This document shows, in pieces, positions 29,620 to 51,520 of a stretch of DNA of 63,035 nt. A program made the translations under genes and the position numbers. The stretch covers positions 1 through 63,035 of the forward strand of contig JAZRVZ010000167.1 of NCBI GenBank assembly GCA_045599425.1, in the 5' to 3' direction. The notes beneath the pieces were generated by a model. That model saw only the letters and a list, made by a program, of their open reading frames with translations, made no database searches and was not told the DNA's origin. Position 1 is the first letter of the stretch. Each line of letters opens with the position of its first letter. Source of the stretch: Bacteroidaceae bacterium (GTDB taxonomy: Bacteria > Bacteroidota > Bacteroidia > Bacteroidales > Bacteroidaceae).

Positions 29620-32600
29620 ATGAAGAAGAACTTACTTCTATTTTGTACAATGATGCTTTCCGCTGTGGGAGCATGGGCACAGAGTTGGGTAGAGCCTTCG
29701 TTGCAGTATTATAACGATGCTGTGCCCGAGAAGGCAGCAATCTACAATGTCGCACAGAAACAGTTCCTGACCAAGGGAGGTGCATGGGGTACCCATGCCG
29801 CACTGGGTGATGCCGGCAAGGCCTTTGTCTATGACATTGAGGCCCAGCAGGAGGATGGTGTGTACAAACTCCATTGTTCGGCTGCCGCCAATACCGGCTA
29901 CCTGGGTCGCAACTCCACCAAGGATGTCTACACAGACTACAAGTCTGGCGACTGGGGCCTTTTGTGGGAGTTTGTCAAGCTGGAGTCGGGCAACTACAAC
30001 ATCAAGACTGCCGCCTCTGACCCTGTCTATGGTTCCAACAAGGCTATCTTTGAGGGCGAGTATGACCCTGATGCGGATCTGGGTGGCCGCTACCTGCTTG
30101 GCTGGAGCGAGAATGAACAGGACCTGACCAACGGCAACGGTGACCCTATGGGCACCAACGTGGGTTGCTATATGTTTGACATGGAGGATGCTGCCAATGC
30201 CGGCGTGAGCATTGAGTGGTGCTTCGTCACCGCGGATGCCTTTACACTGTATGATGCCCAGTCTGCCCTCTATAACAAGCTCAACGAGGCCTTTGAAATG
30301 GGTTATACCGAGGCTGAGCTTGCCGCTGCCGCCAGCGTACTGACGGGTACGGATGTGGAGATGCTGAACGCCGCCGTCAAGGATGTTGAGCAGCTGATCC
30401 TGGAGTATGGATACAACCATGCCACACCCGACAATCCCTATGATGTCAGCAGCGTTATCCTCAACGCAGCCCTGAACGGTACGAAGGGTCAGAAGCCTGC
30501 CGACTGGATCTGTACTGACAATGCGCTGATCCAGAACAACAAGATCTATCCCGACTACGACAATACCGATGCCAATGCTTTCAACAATTTCGTGCAGGAT
30601 TGGACCAGTTCCAACAACACGAGTATCAATGCGGCCGACATTCATCAGGTGATTGCCGACCTGCCTCAGGGTACTTATCGCCTGACGGCCTACTGTATTG
30701 CTACCAGCGGCAGCGCCGACCTGATTCCCAACGGAGCCGAACTGTATGCTGAGAGTGGTGTCATTCACTACAGCACTCCCGTCAGCATGCCCAACGGAGC
30801 TGAGGGTAGTGGCTCGCCCCACCTGACAACGGTCGAGATCACCCACTTCGGCGGCGACCTGACTATCGGCTATGGCTTCACGCCTGGCTATACCAAGTGG
30901 TGGGGTGTGGACAACTTCAAGCTCTACTATTGCGGTCCTGTTGCCAATCCCGGTCTGCTGGCCCTGACCAGCACCTATGCGGCTGCTCAGGAATATGCAG
31001 AGAACTATGAAGGCGAGGACGCCTACTTCACGGCTGCAACCTACAGTGCATTGACCAGCGAGCTCAAGGAGGCCGATGGTATCATGGCTGGTGCAGACAG
31101 CGAGGAATGCCAGGAGGAGGCTGCCAAACTGAATGCGCTGATGAACACGATCAAGGCAGAGATGGCTGCCTATGAGAAGCTGTATACGCTGGTTGAGAAG
31201 GTGAAGGCGGACGTTTCCGCCTATGAGACCTCTGTTCCTTCTCTGGGCGAGACCTTGTCGGGAATGCTTGACCAGTACCTGGGTGCCTATGAGGACAGGG
31301 AAGCTTCCGTTGAGGATATCGAGTCATGGATTGCCGGCTACAACGACGTAATCGTATCCGGCATCAAGGAGGCAATGTCCACTGCCAGTGTGGAGAAACC
31401 CATCGAGATCACCGCCCTCTTCCCCAATATGGGTTATGAGGAGAATACGGCGGAGAGTGCTGCACCCAACGGATGGACTTGCGAGGCCGGTGCCTTCAAG
31501 GCTCGTGCCAACACGGCCGAGGTATGGCAGGCCAGCTTCAACTGCTACCGTATCCTGGAGGGCCTTCCCGCCGGTGCCTACAAACTGACGGCCAAGGCCC
31601 TGAGCCGTCTGGGTGGCAGTGATGAGAACTACCTGAACTACGTGCCTGGCGAGAACCGTCAGATGTCCCGTCTCTATCTGAACACCAATGAGGTGCCTGT
31701 GGCCGACCAGGCTGAGGGTGCCACTCCCGAGCAGCGTTACTCCAATGACATGAACGTGGGTACTGAGGATGAGCCTCTCTGGGTACCCAATTCAATGGAG
31801 GGTGCACGTGTGTACTTCAATGTGGAGGAGTTATATAACAACGAGGTTATTGGTGTATCCCTGGAGGATGGTGCCCCCATTACCATCGGTATCAAGCATG
31901 AGGGCGACGTACCAGGTAACAGCTGGACCATCTGGAGCGACTTCCATGTCTACTACATGGGCGTCAGCAACAATGCCCTCTATGACACCATGGTGGCTTT
32001 GGCCGAACAGGCAAGGCAGAAGGCTGGAGATTCCATGACCGACGAGGGTGAGGACAAGCTGAACAAGGCTGTGGATGCCAGCGAGAGGCTGAATGTGACT
32101 TCCTCAGCAGATGATATCACAGCAGTTATCAACAGCCTGAATGATGCACTGGCCTATGATGCAGCCACCATTCCTCTGTTTGAAAAGCTTATGTCCATGG
32201 TCAGCGAAATGGATGGAAAGGTTTCATCCCTTGATGTTGAGAGCGACTATCAGGGACTGTCAGACATGCTGGATGAGGCTGGTGTTGCTGTCATGGACGA
32301 GCATGCCAACAGCAATGAGCAGATCGAGTCATGGCTGAGTCTGCTGCCCATCGAGCTCACCAAGTTTGTTCAGGATCCCGTTCTGACTACTGCCTCTGAG
32401 GCAAATCCCGGCGACATCACGCCCGTTCTCTCAAATCCCGACTTCACTGGTGTGACCAAAAACAACTGCCCCGGCTGGATCTTTACCTATGAGGCTGATC
32501 ACATTGGTCCCAACAATGATGCCCAGGCTGCATCGAATGCCTGTGAGTTCTGGAAGGCCGCTTCCTTCGACATGCATCAGGATATCGTGGGTCTGGCCGA

Positions 32601-33129
32601 GGGCTACTACCGCCTGACCATGAACGGTTTCTACCGTGCCGGTAATGCCGATCCCAATATCGCAGCATACACCGAGAATCCCGATTCTTGCCGTGATATG
32701 TCCCTCTATGCCAACAATGCAAGCGTACTCCTGAAGAACATCCTGGACGACTGCTCTGAGGAGGCCATCGCTGACGCTCCCGAGTATGTGCTGGGTGAGA
32801 AGACCGTTTATGCTCCCAACACCATGCTGCAGGGTGCCGCATTCTTTGAGGAGGGCAAGTACCAGAATACCCTGGAATTCCACCTTGACAAGGATCAGGT
32901 ACTTACGCTGGGTCTGAAGCTCACCGGAAAGGTGGTTGATGCCAACTGGTGTATGTATGACAACTTCCAGCTGTTCTATCTGGGTACAACCTGTCCCACT
33001 GCTGTCGAGAGCATTGCCAGCGGAACCGTTTCAGGCAACGGACAACTCTACGACCTGCAGGGCCGCAAGGTTGCCAAGGCCCAGAAGGGACTTTATATTC
33101 AGAATGGTAAAGTGGTGCTCGTAAAGTAA
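29620..33129 (+). CDS. giant secreted protein A (1169 aa) with T9SS C-terminal sorting domain; paralogue family member
   Basis: Signal peptide ..AVGAWA|QSW and an N-terminal WG-repeat domain. Three beta modules end in DNFKLYYCG, SDFHVYYMG and DNFQLFYLG, separated by helical spacers. The tail is GQLYDLQGRKVAKAQKGLYIQNGKVVLVK. Confidence 0.85.
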   Translation: MKKNLLLFCTMMLSAVGAWAQSWVEPSLQYYNDAVPEKAAIYNVAQKQFLTKGGAWGTHAALGDAGKAFVYDIEAQQEDGVYKLHCSAAANTGYLGRNSTKDVYTDYKSGDWGLLWEFVKLESGNYNIKTAASDPVYGSNKAIFEGEYDPDADLGGRYLLGWSENEQDLTNGNGDPMGTNVGCYMFDMEDAANAGVSIEWCFVTADAFTLYDAQSALYNKLNEAFEMGYTEAELAAAASVLTGTDVEMLNAAVKDVEQLILEYGYNHATPDNPYDVSSVILNAALNGTKGQKPADWICTDNALIQNNKIYPDYDNTDANAFNNFVQDWTSSNNTSINAADIHQVIADLPQGTYRLTAYCIATSGSADLIPNGAELYAESGVIHYSTPVSMPNGAEGSGSPHLTTVEITHFGGDLTIGYGFTPGYTKWWGVDNFKLYYCGPVANPGLLALTSTYAAAQEYAENYEGEDAYFTAATYSALTSELKEADGIMAGADSEECQEEAAKLNALMNTIKAEMAAYEKLYTLVEKVKADVSAYETSVPSLGETLSGMLDQYLGAYEDREASVEDIESWIAGYNDVIVSGIKEAMSTASVEKPIEITALFPNMGYEENTAESAAPNGWTCEAGAFKARANTAEVWQASFNCYRILEGLPAGAYKLTAKALSRLGGSDENYLNYVPGENRQMSRLYLNTNEVPVADQAEGATPEQRYSNDMNVGTEDEPLWVPNSMEGARVYFNVEELYNNEVIGVSLEDGAPITIGIKHEGDVPGNSWTIWSDFHVYYMGVSNNALYDTMVALAEQARQKAGDSMTDEGEDKLNKAVDASERLNVTSSADDITAVINSLNDALAYDAATIPLFEKLMSMVSEMDGKVSSLDVESDYQGLSDMLDEAGVAVMDEHANSNEQIESWLSLLPIELTKFVQDPVLTTASEANPGDITPVLSNPDFTGVTKNNCPGWIFTYEADHIGPNNDAQAASNACEFWKAASFDMHQDIVGLAEGYYRLTMNGFYRAGNADPNIAAYTENPDSCRDMSLYANNASVLLKNILDDCSEEAIADAPEYVLGEKTVYAPNTMLQGAAFFEEGKYQNTLEFHLDKDQVLTLGLKLTGKVVDANWCMYDNFQLFYLGTTCPTAVESIASGTVSGNGQLYDLQGRKVAKAQKGLYIQNGKVVLVK

Positions 33130-33161
33130 AAGCGGAGCATTGACTGATAAAAAAAGGAAGG

Positions 33162-33190
33162 AAGCCTCATTTTTGGGGCTTTCTTCTTTG
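33162..33190 (+). terminator. intrinsic terminator after gene A
   Basis: AAGCCTCA-tttt-TGGGGCTT stem followed by a T-rich run. Confidence 0.5.
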
Positions 33191-33209
33191 TTATTAATTA
33201 AATAAGGTG

Positions 33210-33217
33210 TAACTTTG
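33210..33217 (+). promoter_or_regulatory. -7 box TAACTTTG for gene B
   Basis: TAnnTTTG about 110-115 nt upstream of the gene B start. Confidence 0.45.
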
Positions 33218-33331
33218 CACAAGGTGTCTGCTTGCCATTGTCTTTCCTGTAGGGCAAATGGCGATGAAGGCATTGCTTTGAGAGAATATTTGCTAATTAC
33301 TATTTACTAACCAATCAAACAACAAATGTTT

Positions 33332-36300
33332 ATGAGAAAGCTTATACTTTCTATTGCAACGCTGTTTGCCGTCACGTCTTCTCAGGCTGCCGTGGGTGAT
33401 GACCTCACCAGCAAGTACCTGAAGAATGCAGACTTCAGTCAGGGTGCCGTCATTGACAATGGCATCTGCACCTATGACAGGGATATGGAGGCAAACGGTA
33501 CAGTCTATTTCGGTCAGCAGGCTGTAGAGGGATGGGAGGCATTTTCACTGTCTTCCAACACCTATGAAGCCCCCGGTTTGAATGACGCTTCCCCCAACCG
33601 GGCTGCTTCTGCCGTTTTTGCGTTCAACGATGAGATGAACGAGGAGGATGACAACATTTTCCTGGGAGGCAAGGGCTTTCTGGCTCCCTTCATGAATTCG
33701 CAGGAGCAGGAAGCTGGTACCTTCCTGGGCCTGGTTGCAGTATGGGGCGGTACTGCCCAGTACACTCAGACTGCCACTCTGCCCGCCGGCTGCTACACCA
33801 TGACCTTTACCACCTATAATGGTAGCGGTACGGGTGAGGTATCCAGCAACCTTTTTGGTTTCATTGCAGACAACGGCAAGGCTTATACCTGTGCTGAGAA
33901 GTCTTGGGGAGAGATTGGTACATGGAATGAAATGACCGTAACCTTCATCCTGGACGAGGAGACCAGCGGCGTCATCTCTGTGGGCTATGTAGGTCCTGCC
34001 GGTTCTGGTGCCATGCCTCACCTATTCATCGAAAGCGTGAAGATTGAGGTGGGTGATGCAACTCCCATCATCCAGGCCCAGATTGATGAGCTGAAGGAGG
34101 TACTGCTTCCCTTGCTGGAGGCTGGTGACGAACTGGGTGTTGATACCAAGGCCGGTTGGGCAGTCTACAACAACGACAACGCAACCCTGGACGAGGTGAA
34201 GGATGCTGTTGCCAACCAGAAGGAGATCAATGAAAAGGGCATGACCGACCTCACCGACTTCTTCATCAACAATGCCCACTTTGCAGAGGGTAGTCCCCTG
34301 GACGCCGGTGTCTGCACCTACGACTATGATATGCCTGGCAACGGTACCAAGTACTTTGGTATGCAGCCCATTGAGAAGTGGACTGCCAGCTCTCCCTCTG
34401 ACAATGTTCAGACGATGGCTAACAGTGGCAGTACTCCCGCCAATCCCCTGAACAGCCGTGCTTCCGGTCTCTTTGCCGTAGGTTCTGGTGACGAGGTATG
34501 GCTGGGTAGCAAGGGCGATACCGCTCCTGCCACCAAGGCTAATGGTTCCACCGAGGGTAATGTGTTCGGCTTCATCTCCGTATGGGGTGGTACCGCCTAT
34601 TATTCCCAGCATGTAACCCTGCCCGCAGGTAACTACACCATTACCATCCCCACCTACAACGAGCGTGGTACGGGTGCCATCGGTAAGAATATGTGTGGCT
34701 TCATTGCCGACAGTGGCGAGGAGTATCTGGCAGAGACCAAGACCTTCCCCGTTGGCAAGTGGACCAATGAGACCATCAAGTTCTCCCTGGACGATGAAAC
34801 CCCGGGCTTGATTACTATCGGTTATGTGGCTGCCAATGCCGGTTCGGCTTCCATGCCTCACCTGTTCATCGACGAGTTTGAGCTGAAGTACAACGGTCTG
34901 CTGGACGTAACTCCCAGCGTGCTGGCTCTTCAGGGTGCCATCCGTACGGCAGAGGAATACACCGGTGGTGACATCCTCTGTGAGAGTGCCATCGTTGAGC
35001 GTCTGGCTGAGGCAGTTGGTGCTGGCCAGTCCCTGATTAGCGCCGGTGGCAGTGACGATGAGGCCAATGTTGCAGCAGCAACGGAAATCAACAATATCAT
35101 TGCCGAGGCAAAGGCCAGTGCGGATCTCTATACCAAGTTCGGTGAATTCCTTGAGGGTGAGCTGGCAGAGACCATTGACCTGTATAGCGAGGGTGAGCTG
35201 GCAGCTTTCTCTGCCGAGCTGTCCGAGTCTTTCGATGAGTACTTTGATGCCTGGGAGAGCGGTGAATATACCAGTGAGCAGATCAATGAGATCATGTCCG
35301 GCCTGAACGGAAAGGTCGTTGCTGCCATCAAGGCTGCCCTTGAGTCTGCAGCTGCCGATGGCAAGGAGCACAGTCTGGACATCTCTGCACTCTTTGCCAA
35401 CATCAAGTACGCCAACAGCACCGTTGAGGGATGGAAGAATGAGACCGGTACCTCGGCCTTCCTGAGCCGCGTACAGACTGCTGAGGTCTGGAACCAGAAC
35501 AAGTTCAATGTATACCAGACCCTGTCTGAGATGCCTGCAGGTGCCTATGAGGTTCGCGTGAATGGCTTCTATCGCAGTGCTGCCAATCTGGACAATTACA
35601 CCGAATGGGAAAGCCAGGATGTTATTGGTCATGCCTACCTCTATGCCGGTGGTAACCAGGTACTGATGCACAACGTGGCAGAGTATGCTGCCGACCAGGA
35701 TGACAACCACACCGCAGAGACCGGTGTCGGTTCGTATGTTCCCAATAGCAATGCCAATGCCAACTACATCTTCTACACCGACGGTGAGGCTGTCAATACC
35801 TTGACTACGGCCCTGCTTGAGACCGGTGACCTGACCATCGGTATCAAGGGTATGGACCTCGAGGATAATGCCTGGGTAGTCTGGGGTGGTTTCACCGTAG
35901 TCTACAAGGGTGCCGGCGAGGAACTTGTCAAGGAAGCTGTCAACGGTGAGATTGATGTCCTGATTGCCGAGGCCCAGGCCATGGACGAGAATGACATCAT
36001 TGTAAAGGTTGAACTGTCGGATAAGAAGCTGAATGACGCAATCACTGCCGGTGAGGCTGCCAAGGAAAGTTCCAGCATAGAAGACAAGACCGATGCCATC
36101 GCAGAGCTGAAGGCTGCCATTGAGTATGCATCCAAGAGCGAGGGACTCCTCATGAAGCTCATGGATGTCTTCACCTTGTATTACGATCTGTTGGACAAGA
36201 CCGAGGTTGAGGGTGATACCAAGGCCATCTCCGGTTTGCTGGACGATGAGATTGGTGATCCCGAGGAAGGTGCCAAGAGCAACGAGCAGATCGAGCAGTG

Positions 36301-37120
36301 GATCGATGAGCTTCCCCTGGCCTGGACCAGGTTCGTATGCAGCCAGGACGGTATGGCAACTGCCAGCGAGAAGGCTCCCGTCAACGTTACGGAGGCCATC
36401 CTGAACCCCGGCTTCGAGGGCGTAACCTCTGAAAGTGCACATGTTGAGTTCTGGTCAGTTGCGAAGGATGGCGGAAACGAAGGCTATGAGGCCGGTATCT
36501 ACGAGTTCTTCAACAATAACAGCTTCGACATCCATCAGACTGTCAATGCCCTGACTCCTGGTTACTACCGTGTACGCGTACAGTCCTTCTATCGTGCAGG
36601 CTCCAATGCTGCCAATGTGGATTCCCTGACGGTCAGCCCCGATTCAATCAACAAGGCATACCTCTATGCAAACGAATCTGCCGTTGCCCTGAAGAACGTA
36701 CTCGACCTGGAGGACGTAGAGGAGAGCGGCTATGTGGCAGGTGAGGCTATGGGTGTTGATGGCGAGGTAACCGTGGCATACAAGGATTCCGAGGCTTACT
36801 ACATCCCCAACAACCGTAATTCACTCAGCACCTACTTTGAGGCAGGATGCTACTGGAATGAGATAGACTGTAAGGTTGCCGAGGACGGCAAGCTGGTTCT
36901 GGGTCTGAAGAAGGATAGCCGTATGGAAAATGACTGGTGTCCCTACGACAACTTCCAGCTGTTCTATCTGGGTACCTCTGCGCCTACCGCCGTCCAGGGC
37001 GTAGCTGCCGATGCTGAGCTTGCCGGCAAGGCTGGCATCTTCGATCTGCAGGGCCGCAAGGTTAGCAAGACACAGAAGGGCCTGTATATCATGAATGGCA
37101 AGGTTGTCATTGTGAAGTAA
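33332..37120 (+). CDS. giant secreted protein B (1262 aa) with T9SS C-terminal sorting domain; paralogue family member
   Basis: MRKLILSIATLFAVTSSQA signal peptide (alternative ATG at 33326). Two gamma modules end in HLFIESVKIEVG and HLFIDEFELKYNG. Two beta modules end in GGFTVVYKGAG and DNFQLFYLGT. The tail is GIFDLQGRKVSKTQKGLYIMNGKVVIVK. Confidence 0.85.
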   Translation: MRKLILSIATLFAVTSSQAAVGDDLTSKYLKNADFSQGAVIDNGICTYDRDMEANGTVYFGQQAVEGWEAFSLSSNTYEAPGLNDASPNRAASAVFAFNDEMNEEDDNIFLGGKGFLAPFMNSQEQEAGTFLGLVAVWGGTAQYTQTATLPAGCYTMTFTTYNGSGTGEVSSNLFGFIADNGKAYTCAEKSWGEIGTWNEMTVTFILDEETSGVISVGYVGPAGSGAMPHLFIESVKIEVGDATPIIQAQIDELKEVLLPLLEAGDELGVDTKAGWAVYNNDNATLDEVKDAVANQKEINEKGMTDLTDFFINNAHFAEGSPLDAGVCTYDYDMPGNGTKYFGMQPIEKWTASSPSDNVQTMANSGSTPANPLNSRASGLFAVGSGDEVWLGSKGDTAPATKANGSTEGNVFGFISVWGGTAYYSQHVTLPAGNYTITIPTYNERGTGAIGKNMCGFIADSGEEYLAETKTFPVGKWTNETIKFSLDDETPGLITIGYVAANAGSASMPHLFIDEFELKYNGLLDVTPSVLALQGAIRTAEEYTGGDILCESAIVERLAEAVGAGQSLISAGGSDDEANVAAATEINNIIAEAKASADLYTKFGEFLEGELAETIDLYSEGELAAFSAELSESFDEYFDAWESGEYTSEQINEIMSGLNGKVVAAIKAALESAAADGKEHSLDISALFANIKYANSTVEGWKNETGTSAFLSRVQTAEVWNQNKFNVYQTLSEMPAGAYEVRVNGFYRSAANLDNYTEWESQDVIGHAYLYAGGNQVLMHNVAEYAADQDDNHTAETGVGSYVPNSNANANYIFYTDGEAVNTLTTALLETGDLTIGIKGMDLEDNAWVVWGGFTVVYKGAGEELVKEAVNGEIDVLIAEAQAMDENDIIVKVELSDKKLNDAITAGEAAKESSSIEDKTDAIAELKAAIEYASKSEGLLMKLMDVFTLYYDLLDKTEVEGDTKAISGLLDDEIGDPEEGAKSNEQIEQWIDELPLAWTRFVCSQDGMATASEKAPVNVTEAILNPGFEGVTSESAHVEFWSVAKDGGNEGYEAGIYEFFNNNSFDIHQTVNALTPGYYRVRVQSFYRAGSNAANVDSLTVSPDSINKAYLYANESAVALKNVLDLEDVEESGYVAGEAMGVDGEVTVAYKDSEAYYIPNNRNSLSTYFEAGCYWNEIDCKVAEDGKLVLGLKKDSRMENDWCPYDNFQLFYLGTSAPTAVQGVAADAELAGKAGIFDLQGRKVSKTQKGLYIMNGKVVIVK

Positions 37121-37176
37121 ATCACGATACAACCTCCATAGATACTATTATAGTTATACATAACAGAAAATCGAAG

Positions 37177-37205
37177 AAGCCCCGAGTCTTTCGGGGCTTT
37201 TTCTT
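37177..37205 (+). terminator. intrinsic terminator after gene B
   Basis: AAGCCCCGA-gtctt-TCGGGGCTT followed by TTTCTTT. Confidence 0.7.
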
Positions 37206-37258
37206 TGTCCCTACGGCAAATTGTGAATTATGTATTGTGAATTATGAATTATTCTTCG

Positions 37259-37266: not shown

Positions 37267-37269
37267 CAG

Positions 37270-38313: not shown

Positions 38314-39135
38314 TTAGTTCTTCTTGATCAGGAAGAAGAGGGAAACGCAGGTCGTCACAACAGCCAGGATGCTGCTCCATGCAGACAGGCTCGTATAGAA
38401 TGAGCTTGACTTGACGCGCTTTGACTTGTTGGGCTCGACATAGATCATATCGTTCTGCTGGACGTAGTAGGCCGGGCTCGAGAAAATGTTGCTCTTGGTC
38501 ATGTCCAGAGGATACATCTTCAGCTCGCCGTTCTCTTCACGATAAAGTTTCACACGGTAGCGGAGACCGGTATCATCGATGTCGCTGCACTGGGCAAGGA
38601 CGTCTACGATGGTGTTGCGCTCACTGGTCAGGCTGACAACCCTGGGAGAATGAACGGCACCCACAACGGTCACGCGGGCATTCAGCAGACGTACCGTAAC
38701 CTCGGGGTCAGGAACAAGTCCTTTCTCCTTGATCTTGTTCTCAATGATGGTGGCACATTCCTCAACGGTGGTTCCGTCCACCCTGATATTGCCGATGGCA
38801 GGAAGAACCAGGTCGCCACCATTGGTCACGGTATAGCCGTAGGCATTGCTCATGGTTCCGGAGTTGTTCATGTTCATGTTCGTATTGGTGCCGGCCGTAC
38901 CCATGGTAAGATCCTGTGCAAAGATCTGCAGCAGCCTGGGCTCGCTGCAGGTAATCTTGATGAGAACCTGATCGGCAGGCTTCAGTCTCATCTCGTACTG
39001 CTGCATAATCTTCTGGGGAGTGGCAAACTGCTCCTCAGATCCCTGGAAATAGACAATCTTCTCTGTGCTGACGCAACTGGTCACTGCCATCATTGCAAGC
39101 ACTGCGATGGCCAATTTTGAAAATATCTTCTTCAT
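38314..39135 (-). CDS. wza: polysaccharide export protein, short Wza family (Poly_export + SLBB), orphan
   Basis: Lipobox AVTSC, the IVYFQG...Y.L.P.D.L.I motif, an SLBB-like segment and a C-terminal TM helix. There is no adjacent Wzc or Wzz. Confidence 0.75.
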   Translation of the reverse strand: MKKIFSKLAIAVLAMMAVTSCVSTEKIVYFQGSEEQFATPQKIMQQYEMRLKPADQVLIKITCSEPRLLQIFAQDLTMGTAGTNTNMNMNNSGTMSNAYGYTVTNGGDLVLPAIGNIRVDGTTVEECATIIENKIKEKGLVPDPEVTVRLLNARVTVVGAVHSPRVVSLTSERNTIVDVLAQCSDIDDTGLRYRVKLYREENGELKMYPLDMTKSNIFSSPAYYVQQNDMIYVEPNKSKRVKSSSFYTSLSAWSSILAVVTTCVSLFFLIKKN

Positions 39136-39286: not shown

Positions 39287-39321
39287 CGTGATTATAGCGG
39301 CTTTATTGCCTTGTCAATTCT

Positions 39322-39355: not shown

Positions 39356-39416
39356 ATACTTGGCTTCGCCGAGCTGCTTTGCGTTCGGCAAAACTCAAGC
39401 GAGCTTGGTTTTGCGC

Positions 39417-42400
39417 TTACTTAACCAGCACCTTCTTGCCATTGATGATGTACAGGCCGGGCTTAGCCAGGCTGTTGACACGCAGGCCGGTGATGGTGAA
39501 GATTGCCTTCTGGGCAGGTGCGGTCTCAATGCTCTCGATGGGAGTAGCGTCGCCGCTGAGTTCAGCCTGGCTTGCACCACCCAGGTACATCAGAGAGAAG
39601 TTGTCCACAACAACCCAGTCCTGACCGACAGCGTTAACCTTCTCGATACCCACGCGCAGGATGCCATCCTTGCCCACCTTGACGGTGATGCTGTTGTGGT
39701 AGAAGCCTGCCTTGAAGAAGTTGTCTGCGGTAGCCAGCTGATCAGCACCCTTGAACGAACCGCCGAAGGTAGAGTTACCGGGAGTGATGTCGATGCCCAG
39801 GACTGCGAGTGAATCCTCGTTCAGCTGAACAGAAGCGATGTTGTTGAGCTCGGTGGCATACTTGCCCTCAGAAGAGGTAGCATAGAGGTAAGCGTAAACC
39901 TGCTGCTCCTTCTCGCCATTCAGGATGGCGTAAGAGTCAGCGGTACCACCACCATGGCGCAGGAAGCCCTGGCATGACAGAACATAGGTACCCTCGGGCA
40001 GACCGGTCAGTTCCTGGTACATGTTGAATGCACCTGAGTTCCATACCTCACCACAGTTGCCAGGCTGGCCACCACCGGTACCGGGCTGCTTGCCCTTCCA
40101 CTCGGTGAAGTTGTGGTTCTGAACGGCACCGGGCTCCTCAACGTAGCCATCCTCGTCGGGCTCGTAGGTCATACCATCCACGTTGAACTGGGGATTCAGG
40201 ATCATGGCAGTGAAGTCAACGGGATTCTCGTCGCTGGCATTCTCCCAGCCCTTAGGCATTCTGATGAGAGCCAGTACCTCGTTGGCCTCCTGGATGAACT
40301 CCTCCATGGCCTTGTTGTCCAGGGTCAGGTATGCGGCATCACCCATGTTGACCTCCTCGATTACTTCCATTACCTTGTCATAGCGTGCCTTCAGGTCGGC
40401 GTCAGCCTCCTCGGCCTTCTCCCACATGTTGTTGGCAGTCTCATACAGGTCAGCAATCTTCTGCTGCAGCTCCATGTTCTTGGCAATCTCATTGTACTGG
40501 GCACGAAGCAGTTCCTTCATCTCCATGCACTCGTCCTCAGAGTGGCTCTTGATGTCCTTGATGAATGCCTGAACATCCTTGATCACCTTCTCAATGGTAT
40601 TGTACTCACCGTCGGTGATTGCCGAAGCGCTCATTCTGGCCTCCAGCTGAGCAATCTCGTCCTGCAGGGTAACAACCCATGCATCAGAGCCAGAACCCTC
40701 GTAAACCAGCTTGAAGTTATCGAAGATTACCCACTGGTGACCGTTGTCAACGCGTACACCGACAGTCAGGTTACCGGGCTCCTTCAGCTGGATGCTGAAC
40801 TTGTTGGTGTAGTCGTAGTTCTCACCGTCCTTCTTGTTCATGAAGTGCCATGCTGAGCCAGTCATTGAGTTGGGGCACCACAGACCGTTGGAGCCACTGG
40901 GATTGTTGTCGCTCATCCACTGAACCTCGCCAGCGTCGTTGACAACCTCGTAGAGCTTCTCCTCGGTACCGTAATCGGTAACGTTGGCAAATACCTGAAT
41001 CTTCTCGGTGCCGTCGGGCAGTACAGCGTAGAGCTCGGCAGGATTGTAACCTGCATCCTGAACGCGATAGAAGCCCTGTACGGAGAGGGTGTACAGACCT
41101 GCGGGTACATTATATACAGTCTGGTACATAGAGAACGCACTCATGAAGTTCTCGGCCAGACCATCCTCCTCATCGGGAGCCTCCTGGCAGAGCTCTGCGT
41201 TGTTGTTTACGCCATTGCCATAGTTTGAACCCCACCAGGGTGAGTTACCGGTAGTGCTCCAACCACTGAAGTTCTTGTTGAACTTGGGATTGTTCAGCAG
41301 GTAGGAAACATCGTCACCGGGCTGCATCTCACCATTGTACTTACCCTCGATCTCAGCCATGCCGGCGTAGATCATGTCAATCTCGGTGCGAGTCCACTCG
41401 CAAGCCTCGTAGGCCTCATTCAGACTGTCGTAGTAGTCCTCCAGCTCACCGGCCAGGTCGGGATTGGTCTCACGGTACTCCTCGATCTTCTCGTAAACAT
41501 CCTCCATGCGCTGTGCGAATACGCGGTAGTCGCTGATGGTAGCCTTCAGGGCGTTCATGGCGTTCTGGATAGAATCGCTCCACAGCTGGCAATCCTCGTC
41601 GCTCAGCTGAGCAGCCTCTGCCAGGGCAGTAACCTCCTCATAGAGAGCGTCATAGGCATCGATGACAGCCTGATTGCCATAGACGTTCAGCGAGCCGTAC
41701 TCCTCGTTCAAGGCAGCAACCTTGTCGCGCAGGGCGATCTGTGCGAGGGTCAGCTCGGTCTTGCCATAGTACTTCAGAGAGAAGTTGTCCATAGCCAGCC
41801 AGTTGATGGTCTTGTCGCTGTCGTAGCGGATACCGAAGGTGAATGCACCACCCTCAGTGGTGAAGGACAGCTCGAAGTGCTCGGGAGCGTTGTTGCCGGT
41901 GGCAACGGGAATCTCGTAGCTCTCGCCGGTAGCGGGGCAGTTGGCGAACAGATATACACCCTTGGAGTCTGCCTTGCTGCCCTGCTGACGGGTTGCAATC
42001 ATGTCCACACCCAGGATATACAGACCCTCGGGCAGGCCTACGGTCTGCTGTGCGTAGCCGGAACCGTTCAGCTGGGGATCCCAGGTCCAGGTCTCCAGGA
42101 AGTTCTGGATGGTTACGCCGTTGCTGCTGTAGGATGCGCTCTGAACCTGGTTGTTTACGCCAGTGAGGGAAATAGTCCAACCGTCGTAGGTGCCATCAGA
42201 GAAGTCTGAGTTGAGGGCGATACCCATCTCGAAGAGGTCGATGGGGTCCTCGGCGGTAGCACCCTCCAGCAGGTCTGCGTTCTGGGCAACCTTCAGCCAA
42301 CCTACGGCCTTCATGATCTCAGCGTATGCAGCATTCAGCTGCTCAATGGTGGCACTGGGATCGTCGTAAACCTTCTGGGCCTTGTCGCAGGCAGCCTTTA

Positions 42401-43217
42401 CGGTGGGCTCGCTCTCGTAGTAGTCAACGCCAGACATGCCCTCGATGTCTACGTCCAGCCAGAACCAGTTGTAGAACTGCATCCTTGCGTTGTAGAGGGT
42501 AGCATCGTACAGGGTCCAGGTGGTATATGCCTCGTTGCCGTACGCATACCTGGGAGTCTTGCCGGTGATCTCTTCCGTGATAGGATCAATGACGTCAACG
42601 CTGTCCACAATGACGGAACCGTAGAAGTACAGACGGCTGTCGAAGCCATAGTCGTCATGGATACCCTGGCTGTAGTCATCGGGAGCATTGTCGTAGGTGG
42701 CCAGGATGTACTCCTGAGCCTCGTTGTTCCAGATCATGTTGGAGGGAACCATACCGAACTTACCGCCGGGAGCAAAGGCGTTGGTCAGCTCGATCTTGCC
42801 ACCACCCAGGTCTGTCAGACCCCATGCGTGGTCACCCTGGCGATTCTGGCCGTCAACCCATGCCTTCTTGGCACCGTCGCAGTCCACGGCGTTCCAGTTG
42901 CCGTTGATCAGGTCCTGGAACCTAACGCCTTCCTTTTCCACTTCCACTCCGGTCTCGTCCTTGATCTTGTAGGTCGAGACAGCGAAGCGTACCTGACGGG
43001 CCTCTTCCTTGGTGTCCTTTGCAGAAGCGCGGGTACCCCAGTTGTTGCCCTGACCATAGAAGTACTCATCACCCTCTGAATTGGTTACAGAGAGGTAGTA
43101 CACCGTGGTGCCGTCGATCTTGACGCTGGTTGCCTTGGTCAGTTCGGGCTCGTCGAACTGTGCCCAGGAGGCTGCAGACACCAAAATCGCGCTCAAAAGA
43201 GTAAATAGCTTTCTCAT
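39417..43217 (-). CDS. giant secreted protein C (1266 aa) with T9SS C-terminal sorting domain; paralogue family member
   Basis: Signal peptide ..AASWA|QFD and an N-terminal WG-repeat domain. Modules end in DNFSLKYYG (alpha), DNFKLVYEG (beta) and DNFSLMYLGG (beta). The tail is IFTITGLRVNSLAKPGLYIINGKKVLVK. Confidence 0.85.
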   Translation of the reverse strand: MRKLFTLLSAILVSAASWAQFDEPELTKATSVKIDGTTVYYLSVTNSEGDEYFYGQGNNWGTRASAKDTKEEARQVRFAVSTYKIKDETGVEVEKEGVRFQDLINGNWNAVDCDGAKKAWVDGQNRQGDHAWGLTDLGGGKIELTNAFAPGGKFGMVPSNMIWNNEAQEYILATYDNAPDDYSQGIHDDYGFDSRLYFYGSVIVDSVDVIDPITEEITGKTPRYAYGNEAYTTWTLYDATLYNARMQFYNWFWLDVDIEGMSGVDYYESEPTVKAACDKAQKVYDDPSATIEQLNAAYAEIMKAVGWLKVAQNADLLEGATAEDPIDLFEMGIALNSDFSDGTYDGWTISLTGVNNQVQSASYSSNGVTIQNFLETWTWDPQLNGSGYAQQTVGLPEGLYILGVDMIATRQQGSKADSKGVYLFANCPATGESYEIPVATGNNAPEHFELSFTTEGGAFTFGIRYDSDKTINWLAMDNFSLKYYGKTELTLAQIALRDKVAALNEEYGSLNVYGNQAVIDAYDALYEEVTALAEAAQLSDEDCQLWSDSIQNAMNALKATISDYRVFAQRMEDVYEKIEEYRETNPDLAGELEDYYDSLNEAYEACEWTRTEIDMIYAGMAEIEGKYNGEMQPGDDVSYLLNNPKFNKNFSGWSTTGNSPWWGSNYGNGVNNNAELCQEAPDEEDGLAENFMSAFSMYQTVYNVPAGLYTLSVQGFYRVQDAGYNPAELYAVLPDGTEKIQVFANVTDYGTEEKLYEVVNDAGEVQWMSDNNPSGSNGLWCPNSMTGSAWHFMNKKDGENYDYTNKFSIQLKEPGNLTVGVRVDNGHQWVIFDNFKLVYEGSGSDAWVVTLQDEIAQLEARMSASAITDGEYNTIEKVIKDVQAFIKDIKSHSEDECMEMKELLRAQYNEIAKNMELQQKIADLYETANNMWEKAEEADADLKARYDKVMEVIEEVNMGDAAYLTLDNKAMEEFIQEANEVLALIRMPKGWENASDENPVDFTAMILNPQFNVDGMTYEPDEDGYVEEPGAVQNHNFTEWKGKQPGTGGGQPGNCGEVWNSGAFNMYQELTGLPEGTYVLSCQGFLRHGGGTADSYAILNGEKEQQVYAYLYATSSEGKYATELNNIASVQLNEDSLAVLGIDITPGNSTFGGSFKGADQLATADNFFKAGFYHNSITVKVGKDGILRVGIEKVNAVGQDWVVVDNFSLMYLGGASQAELSGDATPIESIETAPAQKAIFTITGLRVNSLAKPGLYIINGKKVLVK

Positions 43218-43315
43218 TTTGATACTGATTTAATAGGTTAATAATTAGTTGTTAAGTTAGTGTTTTCTTGGTCTGTTGGGTGTGTGGGTGCGCACATGTG
43301 CGGACTACCACCTTG

Positions 43316-43323
43316 CAAAGATA
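43316..43323 (-). promoter_or_regulatory. -7 box TATCTTTG for gene C
   Basis: TAnnTTTG on the minus strand, about 100 nt upstream of the ATG. It is flanked by an A8 tract upstream and a 12-bp perfect palindrome downstream. Confidence 0.5.
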
Positions 43324-43400
43324 GTGATTTTTTTTCAAATACAGCGTGATAAAACGGATAATTTGTGGTATTTTTCCGATATATCTCTGATATGGTACGG

Positions 43401-43442
43401 GCAAAAAGAAAGTATCCTGCAAGGAAGACCCTTGCAGGATAC
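43401..43442 (-). terminator. intrinsic terminator for gene D
   Basis: 13-bp stem GTATCCTGCAAGG/CCTTGCAGGATAC followed by TTTCTTTTT on the minus strand. It is homologous to the gene C terminator. Confidence 0.7.
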
Positions 43443-43513
43443 GCTATTGTCTATGCTTGGCTTTGCCGAGCTGCTTTGCGTTTGGCAAAACTCAAGCGAG
43501 CTTGGTTTTGCGC

Positions 43514-46500
43514 TTACTTAACCAGCACCTTCTTGCCATTGATGATGTACAGGCCAGCCTTGTTCAGGTTGCTTACGCGTACACCGGTGATGGTATAGAT
43601 GTTCCTGGCAGCCTCGGTGGCAATGCCGTTGATGGCATCAACCGTACCGTTCTCGCCCAGGGCACTGTTGGTACCGTAGGCGGTCAGGGTGAAGTTGTCG
43701 GCTGCCAGCCAGTTGGCGGTGGTAGTCTCAGAGCAGTTGATACCCAGGCGAACGAGGGTCTTGTCCTCAGCCACCTTGAATACCAGTTCGAAGTGCTCGG
43801 GAGCACCGTTGCCGGTTGCTACCTCCATGTGGCTGCCGCCAGCGAAGAGGAAGCAGTCCTTGGTGTCCTGCTTGCTGCCACCCTGCCAGGTAGCGATGAT
43901 GTCAGCACCCAGCTTGTAGGTACCGGCGGGAAGCAGGATCTCCTGGTAGATGTTACCCAGGATGGGAGAGTTGCCGCTGCGCCATACCTCGATGAACTGG
44001 TTACACTCGGGAGTGTAAGGTGCACCGTTCAGCTCGGTCTCAGCACCGGTGTAGGCGCTGTTGGCCTGATAGCCCTTGTTGGTGTAGGTGGTCAGGTCGA
44101 GCGTCCAGCCGTTGGCGGTACCGTCAGACATGTCGGGGTTAACCAGGAACTCGGTCAGCTCAGCGGGATCCTTGTCGTCCGCACCGGCTACAGCCTCGGC
44201 AATCCTGGTATACTTGTCCTCCTGCTGCCAGGTGGTGTAGGCCTTGTCCACCTTCTCGATGAAGGCGTTGATCTCGTCGATGTATGCACTCAGCTCCTCG
44301 GTGGTCAGCTCCAGGTACTTCTGGTCCTCGATGTCGTTGTAGTACTTGTTGCACTCATCCAGCAGGGCATCGTCGCTCATCTCCTCGCACTTGTTGTTGG
44401 CATCGCCGCCCAGCTTGGTGTAGACGGGCTCAATGCCAGCCACAACCTTGGCGTTCTCCTGGGCAGCAGCGTATGCAGCGTTCAGGTCAATCAGGGCCTG
44501 GTACATGGCGTCACCATCAGTGCCGTTCATGGCATCCTGTGCCTCAGCGATGGCGTTGGCCAGGGCAGATGCAGCGGGATCGGTCAGGTTCTCGTCCTTG
44601 TTGGCATCGTAGTACTCCTCGATACCGGGCAGTACAACCGACAGTACGTTGCTGACAGCCTTGGCGCTCTTGCCCTCGTAGACGAGCTTGAACTTGGCCC
44701 AGAGTACCCAGTGTGCCTTCTGACCGTTGGAGGTCAGACCAATGGTCATCTTGCCGCCCTCAACAAGGCCGTAGACGGTCTGGTAGTAGCGCTCGGCAGC
44801 GAAGGCGTATGAAGCACCGTCAACTGAGTTGGGAACCCAGCCGTAGCCCTCTACGTTGTAGTCATAGGGCCATGCACCGGTCTCCTCGGTGATGTAGCAG
44901 TTAACCTTGTCCTCAGCCTGATCCTCGGGCATGGCATCCTTGCAGATGTTCTGTACGGGGGTCTTGAAGTCGTTCATGAACAGGAATACCTTGGAAGCCT
45001 CGGTACCGTCGAAGCTGCCGTTGCCGGCAGGACGCTCGAAGGCCTGGCAGGTCAGGGCATAGATACCATCGGGTACACCCTCAACAACCTGCTGTACGTC
45101 AACTACATTGTCATAAACCTCCACGTTCTTGCAGATGTCCAGACCGCAGTTCTGGTTGCCGACGGGAGTCGCACCCTTGGAGTTGGTCCAGTAGTTGAAG
45201 CCCTCTGCGAAGCTGGGGTTCTTCAGCATGTCGGTGCAGTCGTCGCCCTCGTTGATGCTGGCCTTTACGGCAGCCTCGAACATGTCCTCGAGCTCAACTG
45301 CCTTGGCAGCGATCTCCTCGCCGGTCAGCTCACCGGGCTTCAGGGTGTTCTCCTCCTCTGCGAGGACGAGGTCAACGAACTCATCCCACAGGTCGCCGTT
45401 GTAGTCATACTCGCCGCTGTTGATGCCCTCGACATACTTGTCAACCAGGGCCTTGTAGGCGTTGTATGAGTTGATGCTGGCCAGGGCACGCTGGGTAACC
45501 TCGGTCATGGCCATGGTGTTCTTGTGGATCTCCTCGGGAGTGGTAGCCTCGCGGGCAGCCTGGAGGGCAGCCTGGAAGTTGGCAATCTCAGCGCGGCAGT
45601 AGTAGGTGTCCTCGGTGATGAAGTCCTGCAGGTCGCCGGCGATGGTGGCAATCACGTCCTCGCTCCACATCTTGTAGGCATCCAGGGCACCGCCGTAGTA
45701 GGTCAGGCGCCAGGTGTCGGTGATGGTCCAGTTGTCAGTCTGTGAGTTGTCCTTCTTCACTACACCGATCTTCAGCTTGCCGTCCATGACGGGCAGCATG
45801 ATGGTGTTGTCCATGTCGATACCGGCATTCTCGAAGCGGACGAAGTCCTGCATGGAGTTGGGAGCGTAGTAGTTCTCACCGATGACAGCGCCACCCAGGT
45901 CGGTACGGTCGGTAGATACGGATGACAGTGAACGGATGTTCACATTCAGGCTGTCCTCGCCGCTAACGGCATACAGCTTGGCATGACGGTAGCTGGGATC
46001 ATCCTTGGTGTTCCAGTCGTTGGCAATGGAACCGGCGCGGTAGAAGGCGTTCACGTTGACGCGGTAGATACCGGCGGGCAGACCCTCGATAACCTGCCAT
46101 GTGTCATAGTCCATATTGAAGCGCTCACCGCACTCGTCGGTGGCACCGCCGGCGCCGAAGCTTGAGCCCTTCCAGCCGTCGAACTTGATGCCGTCGAAGT
46201 TGGGGTTGACGATTGAGCTGGTCATGTCCTGAGGATTGTCCACGCTGGCCTGAGCCTTCTTCCAGTCGTTGATCTTCTGGTTTACGGACTCGGCGGCTGC
46301 GTTCAGCTCATCCGCGCTGCTGTCGGCGTTCTTGTAGACAGCGGTCTCGGCGGCAGTGTCCAGACCGGCACACTCGGCAGCGTTCTTCAGGGCAGTTGCC
46401 AGCAGGGCCGAGGCATCCAGGGCGGGCTTCACTGCATCCCACTTGGCCTTCCAGCTGTTGTACTCCTCCTGGCTTACGAAGGCCCAATCCAGACCGGCAC

Positions 46501-47038
46501 CCTCCTTGTCAGCGGGGATGTTGGCATCGATGATGGTGGATGCACCGCTCCAGCCGAAGAAGGTGGTCTCGTAGTTGTCATAGGTGTCTGCACCCCACTT
46601 GTCGTCGTTGGCAGCGCTGCGGATGCGGTAGTACTGGCCGTTCTTGGTGATGTTCCAGTACTCGTGACCCTGAGTGCCCATGTCGATGAAGCAGCCAGCC
46701 TCGTTGTCACGGAACAGGTACTTGCCAGCCTTTTCACCGCTTGAGGTCTTCAGGGAGTAGCCACCAGCGGTCTCGTCATAGGTTACTACGTACAGCAGAC
46801 CCTCGGGCAGAATGGAGGTCTGGGTGCCCCATGCGTTTGAACCGCACAGGAAGGCATTACCCTCCACGTTGTAGATGTAGACTGAGTCGGGAGCCTGGGG
46901 AGGATCCAACTCGGAAACGTCTGCGCCCTTCAGATTCTCCAACTCAAGGAAGCTGGTTGGCTTCGGAGCCTGGATCTGAGCGAAGACACCCATCGTTGCA
47001 CATGCAACGCTGAGCAGAGTGAGTAATCTTTTCTTCAT
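43514..47038 (-). CDS. giant secreted protein D (1174 aa) with T9SS C-terminal sorting domain; paralogue family member
   Basis: Signal peptide ..MGVFA|QIQ and an N-terminal WG-repeat domain. Modules end in TWRLTYYGG (beta), KFKLVYEGK (beta) and DNFTLTAYG (alpha). The tail is IYTITGVRVSNLNKAGLYIINGKKVLVK. Confidence 0.85.
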   Translation of the reverse strand: MKKRLLTLLSVACATMGVFAQIQAPKPTSFLELENLKGADVSELDPPQAPDSVYIYNVEGNAFLCGSNAWGTQTSILPEGLLYVVTYDETAGGYSLKTSSGEKAGKYLFRDNEAGCFIDMGTQGHEYWNITKNGQYYRIRSAANDDKWGADTYDNYETTFFGWSGASTIIDANIPADKEGAGLDWAFVSQEEYNSWKAKWDAVKPALDASALLATALKNAAECAGLDTAAETAVYKNADSSADELNAAAESVNQKINDWKKAQASVDNPQDMTSSIVNPNFDGIKFDGWKGSSFGAGGATDECGERFNMDYDTWQVIEGLPAGIYRVNVNAFYRAGSIANDWNTKDDPSYRHAKLYAVSGEDSLNVNIRSLSSVSTDRTDLGGAVIGENYYAPNSMQDFVRFENAGIDMDNTIMLPVMDGKLKIGVVKKDNSQTDNWTITDTWRLTYYGGALDAYKMWSEDVIATIAGDLQDFITEDTYYCRAEIANFQAALQAAREATTPEEIHKNTMAMTEVTQRALASINSYNAYKALVDKYVEGINSGEYDYNGDLWDEFVDLVLAEEENTLKPGELTGEEIAAKAVELEDMFEAAVKASINEGDDCTDMLKNPSFAEGFNYWTNSKGATPVGNQNCGLDICKNVEVYDNVVDVQQVVEGVPDGIYALTCQAFERPAGNGSFDGTEASKVFLFMNDFKTPVQNICKDAMPEDQAEDKVNCYITEETGAWPYDYNVEGYGWVPNSVDGASYAFAAERYYQTVYGLVEGGKMTIGLTSNGQKAHWVLWAKFKLVYEGKSAKAVSNVLSVVLPGIEEYYDANKDENLTDPAASALANAIAEAQDAMNGTDGDAMYQALIDLNAAYAAAQENAKVVAGIEPVYTKLGGDANNKCEEMSDDALLDECNKYYNDIEDQKYLELTTEELSAYIDEINAFIEKVDKAYTTWQQEDKYTRIAEAVAGADDKDPAELTEFLVNPDMSDGTANGWTLDLTTYTNKGYQANSAYTGAETELNGAPYTPECNQFIEVWRSGNSPILGNIYQEILLPAGTYKLGADIIATWQGGSKQDTKDCFLFAGGSHMEVATGNGAPEHFELVFKVAEDKTLVRLGINCSETTTANWLAADNFTLTAYGTNSALGENGTVDAINGIATEAARNIYTITGVRVSNLNKAGLYIINGKKVLVK

Positions 47039-51510: not shown

Positions 51511-51520
51511 GGGCAAGATA

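Follow-up and report, generated by a model that had tools for sequence, protein, structure and literature searches.

Four large paralogous genes of an uncultured Prevotellaceae-type bacterium encode predicted glycan-binding surface proteins with a probable short type IX sorting signal

The stretch of DNA considered here, called the window below, is the 63,035-nucleotide (nt) contig JAZRVZ010000167.1 of a Bacteroidaceae bacterium (assembly GCA_045599425.1). Its subject is a block at 29620-47038 with four very large open reading frames (ORFs), A to D, which an earlier note, made from the sequence, had singled out as an amplified family of secreted proteins. The ORF list and the translations confirm the coordinates given there. 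A (29620-33129, + strand, 1169 amino acids [aa]) and B (33332-37120, + strand, 1262 aa) lie head to tail, as do C (39417-43217, - strand, 1266 aa) and D (43514-47038, - strand, 1174 aa). An alternative in-frame ATG for B, two codons upstream at 33326, would give a protein of 1264 aa. The two pairs converge on a 2.3-kb spacer that contains a Wza-like lipoprotein gene and a 141-codon ORF, for which the searches returned no hits.

The four proteins are full-length but old and divergent paralogues, with a similarity far above chance. In an all-against-all BLASTP comparison, A and B are 33% identical (E 7e-105, over 858 aa), A and C 24% (E 3e-41), A and D 22% (E 1e-33), and C and D 25-35%. The G+C content of the genes and their G+C content at third codon positions (GC3, 0.64-0.78) are like those of adjacent housekeeping genes, and so the block looks native. 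By inspection of the translations and by Kyte-Doolittle hydropathy, all four N-termini appear to be classical Sec signal peptides cleaved by signal peptidase I, each with a basic n-region and a hydrophobic h-region (10-residue maximum 2.3-2.7). The cleavage contexts are AWA↓QSW, SQA↓AVG, SWA↓QFD, and VFA↓QIQ for A to D (arrows mark predicted sites here and below), with Gln at +1 in three of the four, and the translations have no lipobox cysteine at the cleavage site. The picture of very large, amplified, Sec-exported paralogues, with an A-Q cleavage context in three of them, is thus borne out by BLASTP and by the N-termini.

An AlphaFold2 (AF2) model of A, built from a 56-sequence family alignment and with a mean pLDDT of 88.7, resolves the protein (+ strand) into a string of domains. 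The signal peptide, read from the translation (residues 1-20), is followed by a beta-trefoil domain (residues 25-204, nt 29692-30231) that was assigned from a separate AF2 model and Foldseek, three helices (205-267), and a type I module (275-437), a DUF5013-like beta-sandwich resembling carbohydrate-binding modules (CBMs). A spacer of five helices (444-588) leads to a first type II, CBM61-like beta-sandwich (596-781, nt 31405-31962), and a spacer of six helices (784-921) leads to a second (930-1122, nt 32407-32985); both type II modules were placed from the AF2 strands and a module profile. A disordered linker (1123-1141, pLDDT 34) then gives way to a tail with short strands (about 1142-1169). 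Motif matches and a tail profile place a predicted short type IX secretion system (T9SS) C-terminal domain (CTD) at nt 33001-33126, as the 42 aa that follow a predicted PT↓AV cleavage: AVESIASGTVSGNGQLYDLQGRKVAKAQKGLYIQNGKVVLVK.

The paralogues appear to be variations on this plan. In B (+ strand), the translation and the DUF5013 score point to a signal peptide, two DUF5013-like modules (about residues 20-246 and 300-527), which stand where the trefoil sits in the paralogues, and helical spacers. The module alignment then places CBM61-like modules at about 679-863 and 1014-1217, and the translation ends in a predicted short CTD (residues 1220-1262, nt 36989-37117). For C (- strand), the translation, BLASTP, and alignments suggest a signal peptide, a beta domain at the N-terminus that is enlarged, helices, three modules (about 322-488, 632-844, and 986-1216) separated by helical spacers, and a predicted short CTD in the last 41 aa (nt 39420-39542). 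On the same grounds, D (- strand) would have a signal peptide, a domain of the trefoil type, helices, three modules (about 266-452, 596-795, and 940-1125) that alternate with helical spacers, and a predicted short CTD in the last 40 aa (nt 43517-43636).

Several claims about the interior of these proteins can be judged against this model. The modules had been described as all-beta, about 160-190 aa long, and closed by a W..(D/S)(N/D)F.L.Y.G strand. Fold and strand stand, each beta module of A terminating in W..DNF.L.Y.G, but the size does not, since the modules of A to D range from 163 to about 230 aa. By sequence they fall into three kinds, one of them being the two DUF5013-like modules at the N-terminus of B. 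Type I (A1, C1, and D3; about 165 aa) has the motifs '..IAT..GS..' and 'ATGN.APEHFEL', and type II (A2, A3, B3, B4, C2, C3, D1, and D2; 185-230 aa) has 'GFYR.G', 'LYAN', and 'PN(S/T)M..A..F..G.Y.N'. The Ala/Glu/Leu-rich helical spacers of about 120-150 aa are found in the model of A as the earlier note expected; they are rich in Ala, Glu/Asp, and Leu, with 31-39% Ala, Glu, and Leu. An N-terminal domain common to A, C, and D, read there as a WG-repeat domain, is also real and corresponds to the trefoil of A.

The N-terminal domain of A has, in its AF2 model, a beta-trefoil, lectin-type fold. Modeled alone (pLDDT 85, pTM 0.83), residues 25-204 were matched by Foldseek with probability 1.0 to BT0265, which we take to be a match to the beta-trefoil domain of that protein, and to CdtA, HA33, lysenin, FGF, IL-18, Symfoil designs, and trefoil lectins, at a target-normalized TM-score of 0.5-0.77 and a sequence identity of 8-15%. 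The ricin/CBM13 Pfam model did not match A to D, in which merely loose, W-containing repeats occur, without a match to QxW. The domain is like the ricin-type, CBM13-like trefoil lectins (HA33, CdtA, and the C-terminal domain of lysenin) in fold and in co-occurring with other glycan-binding domains in relatives such as P0075 and P0078, but unlike them it is large (180 aa) and has loop insertions of lower confidence.

For the beta-sandwich modules, the single-domain matches of the whole A model in Foldseek were, without exception, jelly rolls that bind carbohydrate or proteins sharing this fold. They include TmCBM61 in complex with beta-1,4-galactotriose (2xon, chain L; probability 1.0, target-normalized TM [TMt] 0.63, 167 columns, a match of the whole model with the module unspecified), a porphyran-binding CBM (8xmz, TMt 0.69), the hyaluronan-binding CBM70 (4d0q), CBM22, CBM11, an endo-arabinanase CBM, and the CBM-fold Stig cyclases. 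The surface glycan-binding protein (SGBP) SGBP-B of Bacteroides thetaiotaomicron (7kwb) is in the same list at E 1e-3. A hidden Markov model of the eight type II modules of A to D and five from relatives, searched against PDB sequences, matched both CBM61 modules of 9fli, an arabinogalactan endo-beta-1,4-galactanase of glycoside hydrolase (GH) family GH53, at E 4e-9, and TmCBM61 itself (2xom) at E 1.3e-4. These alignments cover just the first strands (NPxFE..W and F..Q.v.LPaGxY) and the last strand (G.l.iG…W..D.F.L). Type II modules thus look remotely related to CBM61, with a large insertion. They are like CBM61, which binds beta-1,4-galactan in GH53 galactanases (TmCBM61 2xom/2xon and 9fli), in having a beta-jelly-roll fold, in the alignment of first and last strands, and in being attached to GH53 in relatives; they are unlike it in length (185-230 aa versus about 150), in a long insertion, which forms helices in the two modeled copies, and in the conserved PN(S/T)M loop. 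Unlike CBM61 enzymes, these proteins carry three modules each without a catalytic domain, and pairwise sequence searches fail to connect the two.

DUF5013 (PF16405) gives a possible link for the other modules. With 36.2 bits, B exceeds the gathering threshold of 28.5, and A, C, and D lie just under it at 27.2, 25.2, and 24.7 bits. DUF5013 is a family without known function, and no useful literature on it was found. Pfam searches with 13 isolated modules returned nothing meaningful, and a single-sequence PDB search with the DUF5013-like region of B gave no match. The statement that no module could be placed in a known family therefore does not survive: the N-terminus is a predicted trefoil, the type II modules are CBM61-like jelly rolls, and B passes the DUF5013 threshold. 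A placement of the modules in well-characterized families, which had been named as a result that would speak against the novelty of these proteins, was found in part; the folds are known and a remote relation to CBM61 exists, but there is no characterized orthologue.

We turn to the C-terminal tail. For Prevotella intermedia, Ye et al. (Open Biol 2025, PMC11969387) report that 48 of 80 predicted T9SS cargo proteins have 'short' CTDs of 43-55 aa. The cleavage motif of these CTDs, PT/GI, lies in a flexible linker, and its +2 position is a conserved Ile; 6-11 aa separate this from motif B (Y..G plus Arg/Lys), 1-6 aa separate motif B from motif D (GxY, replaced in one subgroup by GxN, and then Ile), and motif E contributes a conserved Lys/Arg and an extra basic residue. 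The predicted fold is a sheet of three strands, counterparts of strands 3, 6, and 7 in the canonical sandwich, and cleavage and C-terminal glycosylation were demonstrated with these short CTDs.

The tails of A to D have motif B, 3-5 residues, motif D, and motif E with a basic residue near the C-terminus, usually the last. That of A reads ..CPT↓AVESIASGTVSGNGQ-LYDLQGRKV-AKAQK-GLYI-QNGKVVLVK (42 aa), and the predicted site of B is PT↓AV, 43 aa from the end; the cleavage motif is degenerate in C (AT↓PI, 41 aa) and D (VD↓AI, 40 aa). Among orthologues, the consensus is P(T/D)↓A(I/V)E….IYDLxGRRVxKAxKG(I/L)YIxNGKKVxVK, with a GxN subgroup (..KGVNIVRKADGKVVKLLVK), and neither the glycine of motif B nor that of motif D varies among the 24 aligned tails. 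In the complete homologues that were fetched, the tail is always at the extreme C-terminus and the N-terminus is signal-peptide-like, across many architectures. The likeness to the short CTDs described for P. intermedia is close: an extreme C-terminal position with a signal peptide at the N-terminus, 40-43 aa after a P-T↓(A/G)-(I/V)-type site in a disordered linker, motifs B, D, and E in order, and a predicted small sheet of about three strands. A difference is that the host here is an uncultured gut or rumen organism of the Prevotellaceae type, not an oral one.

A profile of the 24 tails was searched against all PDB sequences and gave 12 hits, 5 of which are entries for CTDs of Porphyromonas gingivalis: the RgpB CTD crystal structure (5hfs, E 1.3e-3), the RgpA CTD (7pq4, E 2.3e-3), the RgpB IgSF-CTD (5ag8 and 5ag9, E 0.02-0.03), and HBP35 (5y1a, E 5.7). 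A moderate sequence relation of the tail to experimentally proven CTDs is suggested by these matches. The same search matched the C-terminus of 4kca, the GH43 arabinanase ARN2 from a bovine rumen metagenome (residues 642-682, E 8e-10), and 7jvi, a beta-helix protein (residues 813-842, E 5e-5). In both entries the same short tail stands at the C-terminus of a solved structure of another protein, and the short T9SS CTD may already be present, unrecognized, in deposited PDB constructs. Most matches of the tail profile in a database search were short fragments from the ends of contigs, bearing the name 'hypothetical protein [Prevotella sp.]', and were of little further use.

The window also has a gene for a T9SS plug protein (53279-54334, - strand; NCBIfam NF052315, E 4e-109, 365 bits versus a cut-off of 100), about 6 kb from the four-gene block, so that the genome has the secretion machinery; an HtrA gene lies next to D (47645-49111). 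Both had been remarked on as neighbors of the block, and both are there. It seems very probable that the tail targets A to D to the T9SS. The claim that the tail is a Prevotella-type T9SS sorting signal thus agrees with the short CTD class, as that class is described for P. intermedia (PMC11969387), and with the RgpB and RgpA matches of the profile.

The 3′ ends of the genes are of interest in themselves. Those of A and B (32945-33130 and 36933-37121) are 77-79% identical at the nucleotide level over 73 and 84 nt, and those of C and D (39356-39503 and 43453-43600) are 89% identical over 148 nt, 61 nt of which lie past the stop codon. These CTD-coding ends are far more alike than the whole proteins (33% and 25%), which suggests gene conversion or a recent exchange of the tail cassette within each pair.

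How widespread are such proteins? A word-indexed search found about 100 relatives, all unnamed. Of 1.84 billion cluster representatives at 50% identity, searched exhaustively, 2185 matched at E<=1e-3, a number that falls to 386 at E<=1e-30; among the best 150 of the 2185, most are 1100-1300 aa long and align end to end. No characterized or named member was found among the relatives. A profile scan of genome contigs seeded with a 20-sequence alignment matched metagenome-assembled genomes (MAGs) labeled Prevotellaceae, Bacteroidaceae, or Bacteroidales, one of them labeled horse faeces. The description of the family as lineage-specific holds in that it is confined to uncultured Prevotellaceae-type MAGs; with 2185 representatives at 50% identity, it is not small.

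Several relatives join the same building blocks to other domains. One has GH53, a trefoil, helices, modules, and the short tail (P0078); another has a GH51 arabinofuranosidase, a module, and the tail (P0080). Others carry BspA-type leucine-rich repeats with modules and the tail (P0073), F5/8 type C domains with trefoils, a module, and the tail (P0075), or two modules with Big_2, LTD, CotH, and a canonical Por_Secre_tail (P0067). The module of A at 930-1122 is 27-33% identical to modules in P0067 (CotH/LTD) and P0080 (GH51). Given the GH53 and GH51 fusions and the presence of the tail on a rumen GH43 enzyme, pectic galactan or arabinan is a plausible ligand class, by guilt by association.

Taken together, we favor, at somewhat better than even confidence, the interpretation that A to D are noncatalytic, multivalent glycan-binding surface proteins of the lectin/CBM type, carried by the T9SS. 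Sugar binding and the identity of the ligand are read from the folds, the CBM61 relation, and the GH53 and GH51 fusions of the relatives, and secretion, cleavage, and anchoring from the work on P. intermedia. We imagine that each protein would cross the inner membrane by Sec export and be processed by signal peptidase I. Its short CTD of 40-43 residues would then be recognized by the T9SS, with PorV as shuttle and Sov as translocon; the PorU sortase would cut at P-T↓A-V/I, or close to it, within the disordered linker and join the new C-terminus to a surface glycan or lipopolysaccharide (LPS). Once mature, the protein would extend a single beta-trefoil and three CBM61-like jelly rolls from the cell, with spacers of five to six helices between them. 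One can envision that sugar sites that are weak individually act jointly to retain a polysaccharide at the surface, or else particles or cells coated with glycans. As ligands, plant pectic side chains (beta-1,4-galactan, arabinan, and arabinogalactan) would be the most likely.

A number of results weigh against this interpretation. At the tail, neither PF18962 (Por_Secre_tail) nor TIGR04183 matched, with whole A to D at E<=1 or with the isolated last 80-83 residues at E<=10. The canonical seven-stranded beta-sandwich of about 70-100 aa is not seen, the AF2 model of A having about 28 residues with short strands. When the tail profile was compared by hhalign with three canonical CTDs, motif B alone was aligned, at 15% probability. 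Among the modules, type I or DUF5013-like profiles reach TmCBM61 (2xom) at just E 0.11, and a single-sequence PDB search with A gave no match, so that the relation to CBM61 is a remote one. CBM-like jelly rolls are not always lectins: Stig cyclases, Cry domains, and phage tail proteins turn up together in the same match lists. Finally, A to D are not beside SusC/D, glycoside hydrolase, or carbohydrate-utilization genes in the window, and the context therefore gives no support for a role with dietary glycans.

The first three of these results would fit a tail that is no T9SS signal at all, the proteins being released or anchored by another route and the likeness to CTD motifs being convergent. 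That a standard CTD model should fail had indeed been named in advance as a result that would speak against T9SS dependence, and the two models do fail at E<=10, but the short CTD class fits and the profile finds RgpB and RgpA. We regard convergence as quite unlikely, as motifs of the same kind and length are cleaved and glycosylated in P. intermedia (PMC11969387). In addition, P. gingivalis CTDs make up five of the 12 entries found, the tail is always C-terminal in the complete homologues that were fetched, and the plug gene is present in the window. Delivery by the T9SS is accordingly kept as part of the interpretation that we favor.

Structure searches with the whole A model raise another comparison. 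The best PDB matches were full-length Cry1Aa, Cry1Ac, Cry1Ca, and Cry8Ba protoxins, at E 1e-13 to 1e-12. The C-terminal half of the Cry1Ac protoxin structure reportedly alternates helical bundles and CBM-like beta-rolls, and A to D resemble the Cry1 protoxins (4w8j and 8w7n) in such an alternation and in a length of about 1100 aa. The superposition is poor (TM 0.12-0.16, rmsd above 20 Å, identity 8-11%), and phage tail proteins with several CBM-like domains reach whole-chain E values down to 6e-16. When full-length A was combined with 19 close relatives into a profile and searched against the PDB, no Cry sequence was matched. With unrelated phage tail proteins scoring equally well or better, the Foldseek score speaks for similar domain content rather than a common architecture, and we reject a kinship with Cry protoxins. 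One could still suppose that A to D are structural proteins of a surface coat or lattice, their bundles and jelly rolls serving for packing and self-assembly without any ligand. That crystal-forming protoxins head the match list would suit such a role, as would the highly acidic composition of the four proteins (about 170-196 Asp and Glu versus 67-88 Lys and Arg), but the poor Cry superposition, the equally good phage tail matches, and the empty profile search leave it very unlikely.

The modules could also hide an enzymatic activity. In the alignment, all type II modules share invariant Glu, Arg, and Tyr residues together with the PN(S/T)M loop, and CBM-fold enzymes, the Stig cyclases, are among the Foldseek matches; one or more jelly rolls might then be a cryptic lyase, hydrolase, or cyclase-like enzyme, making A to D unrecognized polysaccharide-degrading proteins. 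Searches of Pfam, NCBIfam, and the PDB detected no catalytic family in A to D, and in relatives the modules are appended to true catalytic domains, the usual position of a CBM. The strands conserved at the N-terminus (NPxF(D/E)) and at the C-terminus (DNF) presumably form the structural core and calcium-site region of CBM jelly rolls, which counts against catalysis as well. We consider a cryptic enzyme highly improbable, and noncatalytic glycan binding remains the role that we favor for the modules.

What such binding would be for can be argued in more than one direction. RemA of Flavobacterium johnsoniae is a T9SS lectin adhesin. A to D resemble RemA and the SGBPs of the SusE/F type in being multidomain and noncatalytic, with several CBM-like domains and, for A to D, a predicted surface exposure. 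Unlike the SusE/F-type SGBPs, A to D are not lipoproteins, are not encoded in a polysaccharide utilization locus (PUL) beside susC/susD, have long helical spacers, and are proposed to be anchored through the T9SS and PorU.

With the same export and anchoring, A to D might thus be cell adhesins that bind host mucin, epithelial glycans, or surface polysaccharides of their own or other bacteria and act in coaggregation or biofilm formation. A trefoil and CBM-like modules on long spacers are a typical adhesin design, and paralogue amplification, with 22-33% identity and a copy number that varies from genome to genome, fits diversifying pressure on surface proteins. The genes also lie beside a large exopolysaccharide locus. 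In Segatella isolates, biofilm formation correlates with the presence of the T9SS (PMC11514259). On the other side, the cassette fusions found are to plant-cell-wall enzymes (GH53 and GH51), the tail occurs on a rumen GH43 enzyme, and the sole characterized relative detectable by sequence binds plant galactan. We see an adhesin role as possible but rather unlikely, and return to plant pectic glycans as the ligands that we favor.

The gene neighborhood bears on whether the block is a unit. The earlier note had called it the most system-like content of the window. In a syntenic MAG locus (JAZLFZ010000007.1, 13728-23570), genes for Wzi, Wzc, a sugar transferase, ZapA, and RNase Y and a small ORF are followed by A and B; porP/sprF, an FGE-sulfatase-type (PorK/GldJ-like) gene, an unannotated gene, and gldM/porM, that is, a core T9SS operon, come next. 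The position of that operon is taken in the window by the Wza-like gene, C, and D. In other MAGs, family genes are found between Peptidase_M49 or DNA-alkylation-repair genes and MatE genes, or among other housekeeping genes, in one or two copies. Across the window and seven related contexts, no SusC/D, glycoside hydrolase, or dedicated partner recurs near them. Since the neighbors are not conserved among relatives, the reading of the block as an operon or system is dropped; orthologues occur as singletons or pairs in unrelated housekeeping contexts, and A to D are independent cargo genes, not a system. Hairpins with stems of 9-16 bp lie just 3′ of the stops of A, B, and D, although the overall number of terminators in the region is what chance would give.

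Long antisense ORFs had also been taken as a sign of high expression, and this we reject. The longest antisense open frame covers 25-64% of A to D, compared with 79% of the RNase Y gene, 75% of the HtrA gene, and up to 100% of several others. Such antisense frames are ordinary in this GC3-rich window, and the expression level of A to D cannot be read from them. Shadow ORFs of 300-900 codons are common across the window. Very long ORFs without a family match occur at 4250-6988, 8067-9389, and 50347-51690 (all - strand), antisense to the Wza-SLBB gene, EpsG, and three small + strand ORFs, respectively, which are evidently the true genes.

A large biosynthesis locus of the exopolysaccharide or capsule type (4319-25694) adjoins A to D. 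On the + strand, it has a Wza-like exporter with SLBB domains (4319-6874), Wzz (6909-7961), the EpsG polymerase (7995-9128), and a flippase (15038-16504); Wzc is on the - strand (22147-24609). The locus further includes several GT4-type (Glycos_transf_1) glycosyltransferases, a TOD1/MUCI70-like one, a TupA-like ATP-grasp protein, a beta-helix protein, a WecA-type transferase, Wzi, and an initiating sugar transferase. Cargo of the T9SS is attached to glycans at the surface. The Wza-like (Poly_export) lipoprotein of the spacer is a second, short one of 273 aa (38314-39135, - strand; lipobox ..VTSC) and stands alone downstream of C, apart from the main locus.

Two 22-bp tandem arrays, at 29418-29509 and 47315-47369, bracket the four genes, both in the + orientation and with the common core GATTTGCCCA(A/G)GTC. 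The first has about 4 copies, 110-200 nt upstream of A, and the second about 2.5 copies in the divergent intergenic region between D and the HtrA gene. With up to 2 mismatches, six of the eight matches to the pattern in the window fall inside the arrays, against a chance expectation of 1.0. No exact match was found in 12 related loci, and the A orthologue in the syntenic MAG has no such array upstream. They may serve to bind a regulator or be a scar left by recombination. Elsewhere in the window, three consecutive small ORFs of 176, 296, and 176 aa located 3′ of a sigma-70 gene (50093-52051, + strand) and a 416-aa ORF after proS (58823-60073, + strand) have no Pfam match.

Each building block of A to D has a known counterpart; the novelty lies in their combination, kept across the many full-length relatives found, and in a family for which these relatives include no characterized or named member, and current concepts are not overturned by it. 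Standard annotation (Pfam, NCBIfam, and TIGR04183) is blind to the family. Since the short CTD escapes TIGR04183 and PF18962, surveys that define T9SS cargo by TIGR04183, such as PMC11107044, would omit such proteins, and they may understate the role of the T9SS in Segatella and Xylanibacter.

In the guts of humans (non-Western), pigs, and ruminants, many communities are dominated by Prevotellaceae, and how these bacteria hold plant fiber outside SusC/D loci is poorly understood. We suggest, tentatively and with more doubt than conviction, that A to D are members of a very large, wholly uncharacterized class of surface proteins in Prevotellaceae, with at least 2000 clusters at 50% identity, and that this class forms a PUL-independent, T9SS- and LPS-anchored layer of 'lectins on a stalk', with modules that constitute one or more new CBM families, each of its own specificity; the T9SS cargo of gut and rumen species, and its part in fiber capture or aggregation, would then be systematically undercounted. 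The modules may represent new CBM specificities, usable as probes for pectic glycans. If A to D are indeed T9SS-anchored multivalent glycan binders, they would be candidates for a PUL-independent layer of capture or adhesion at the surface of these bacteria.

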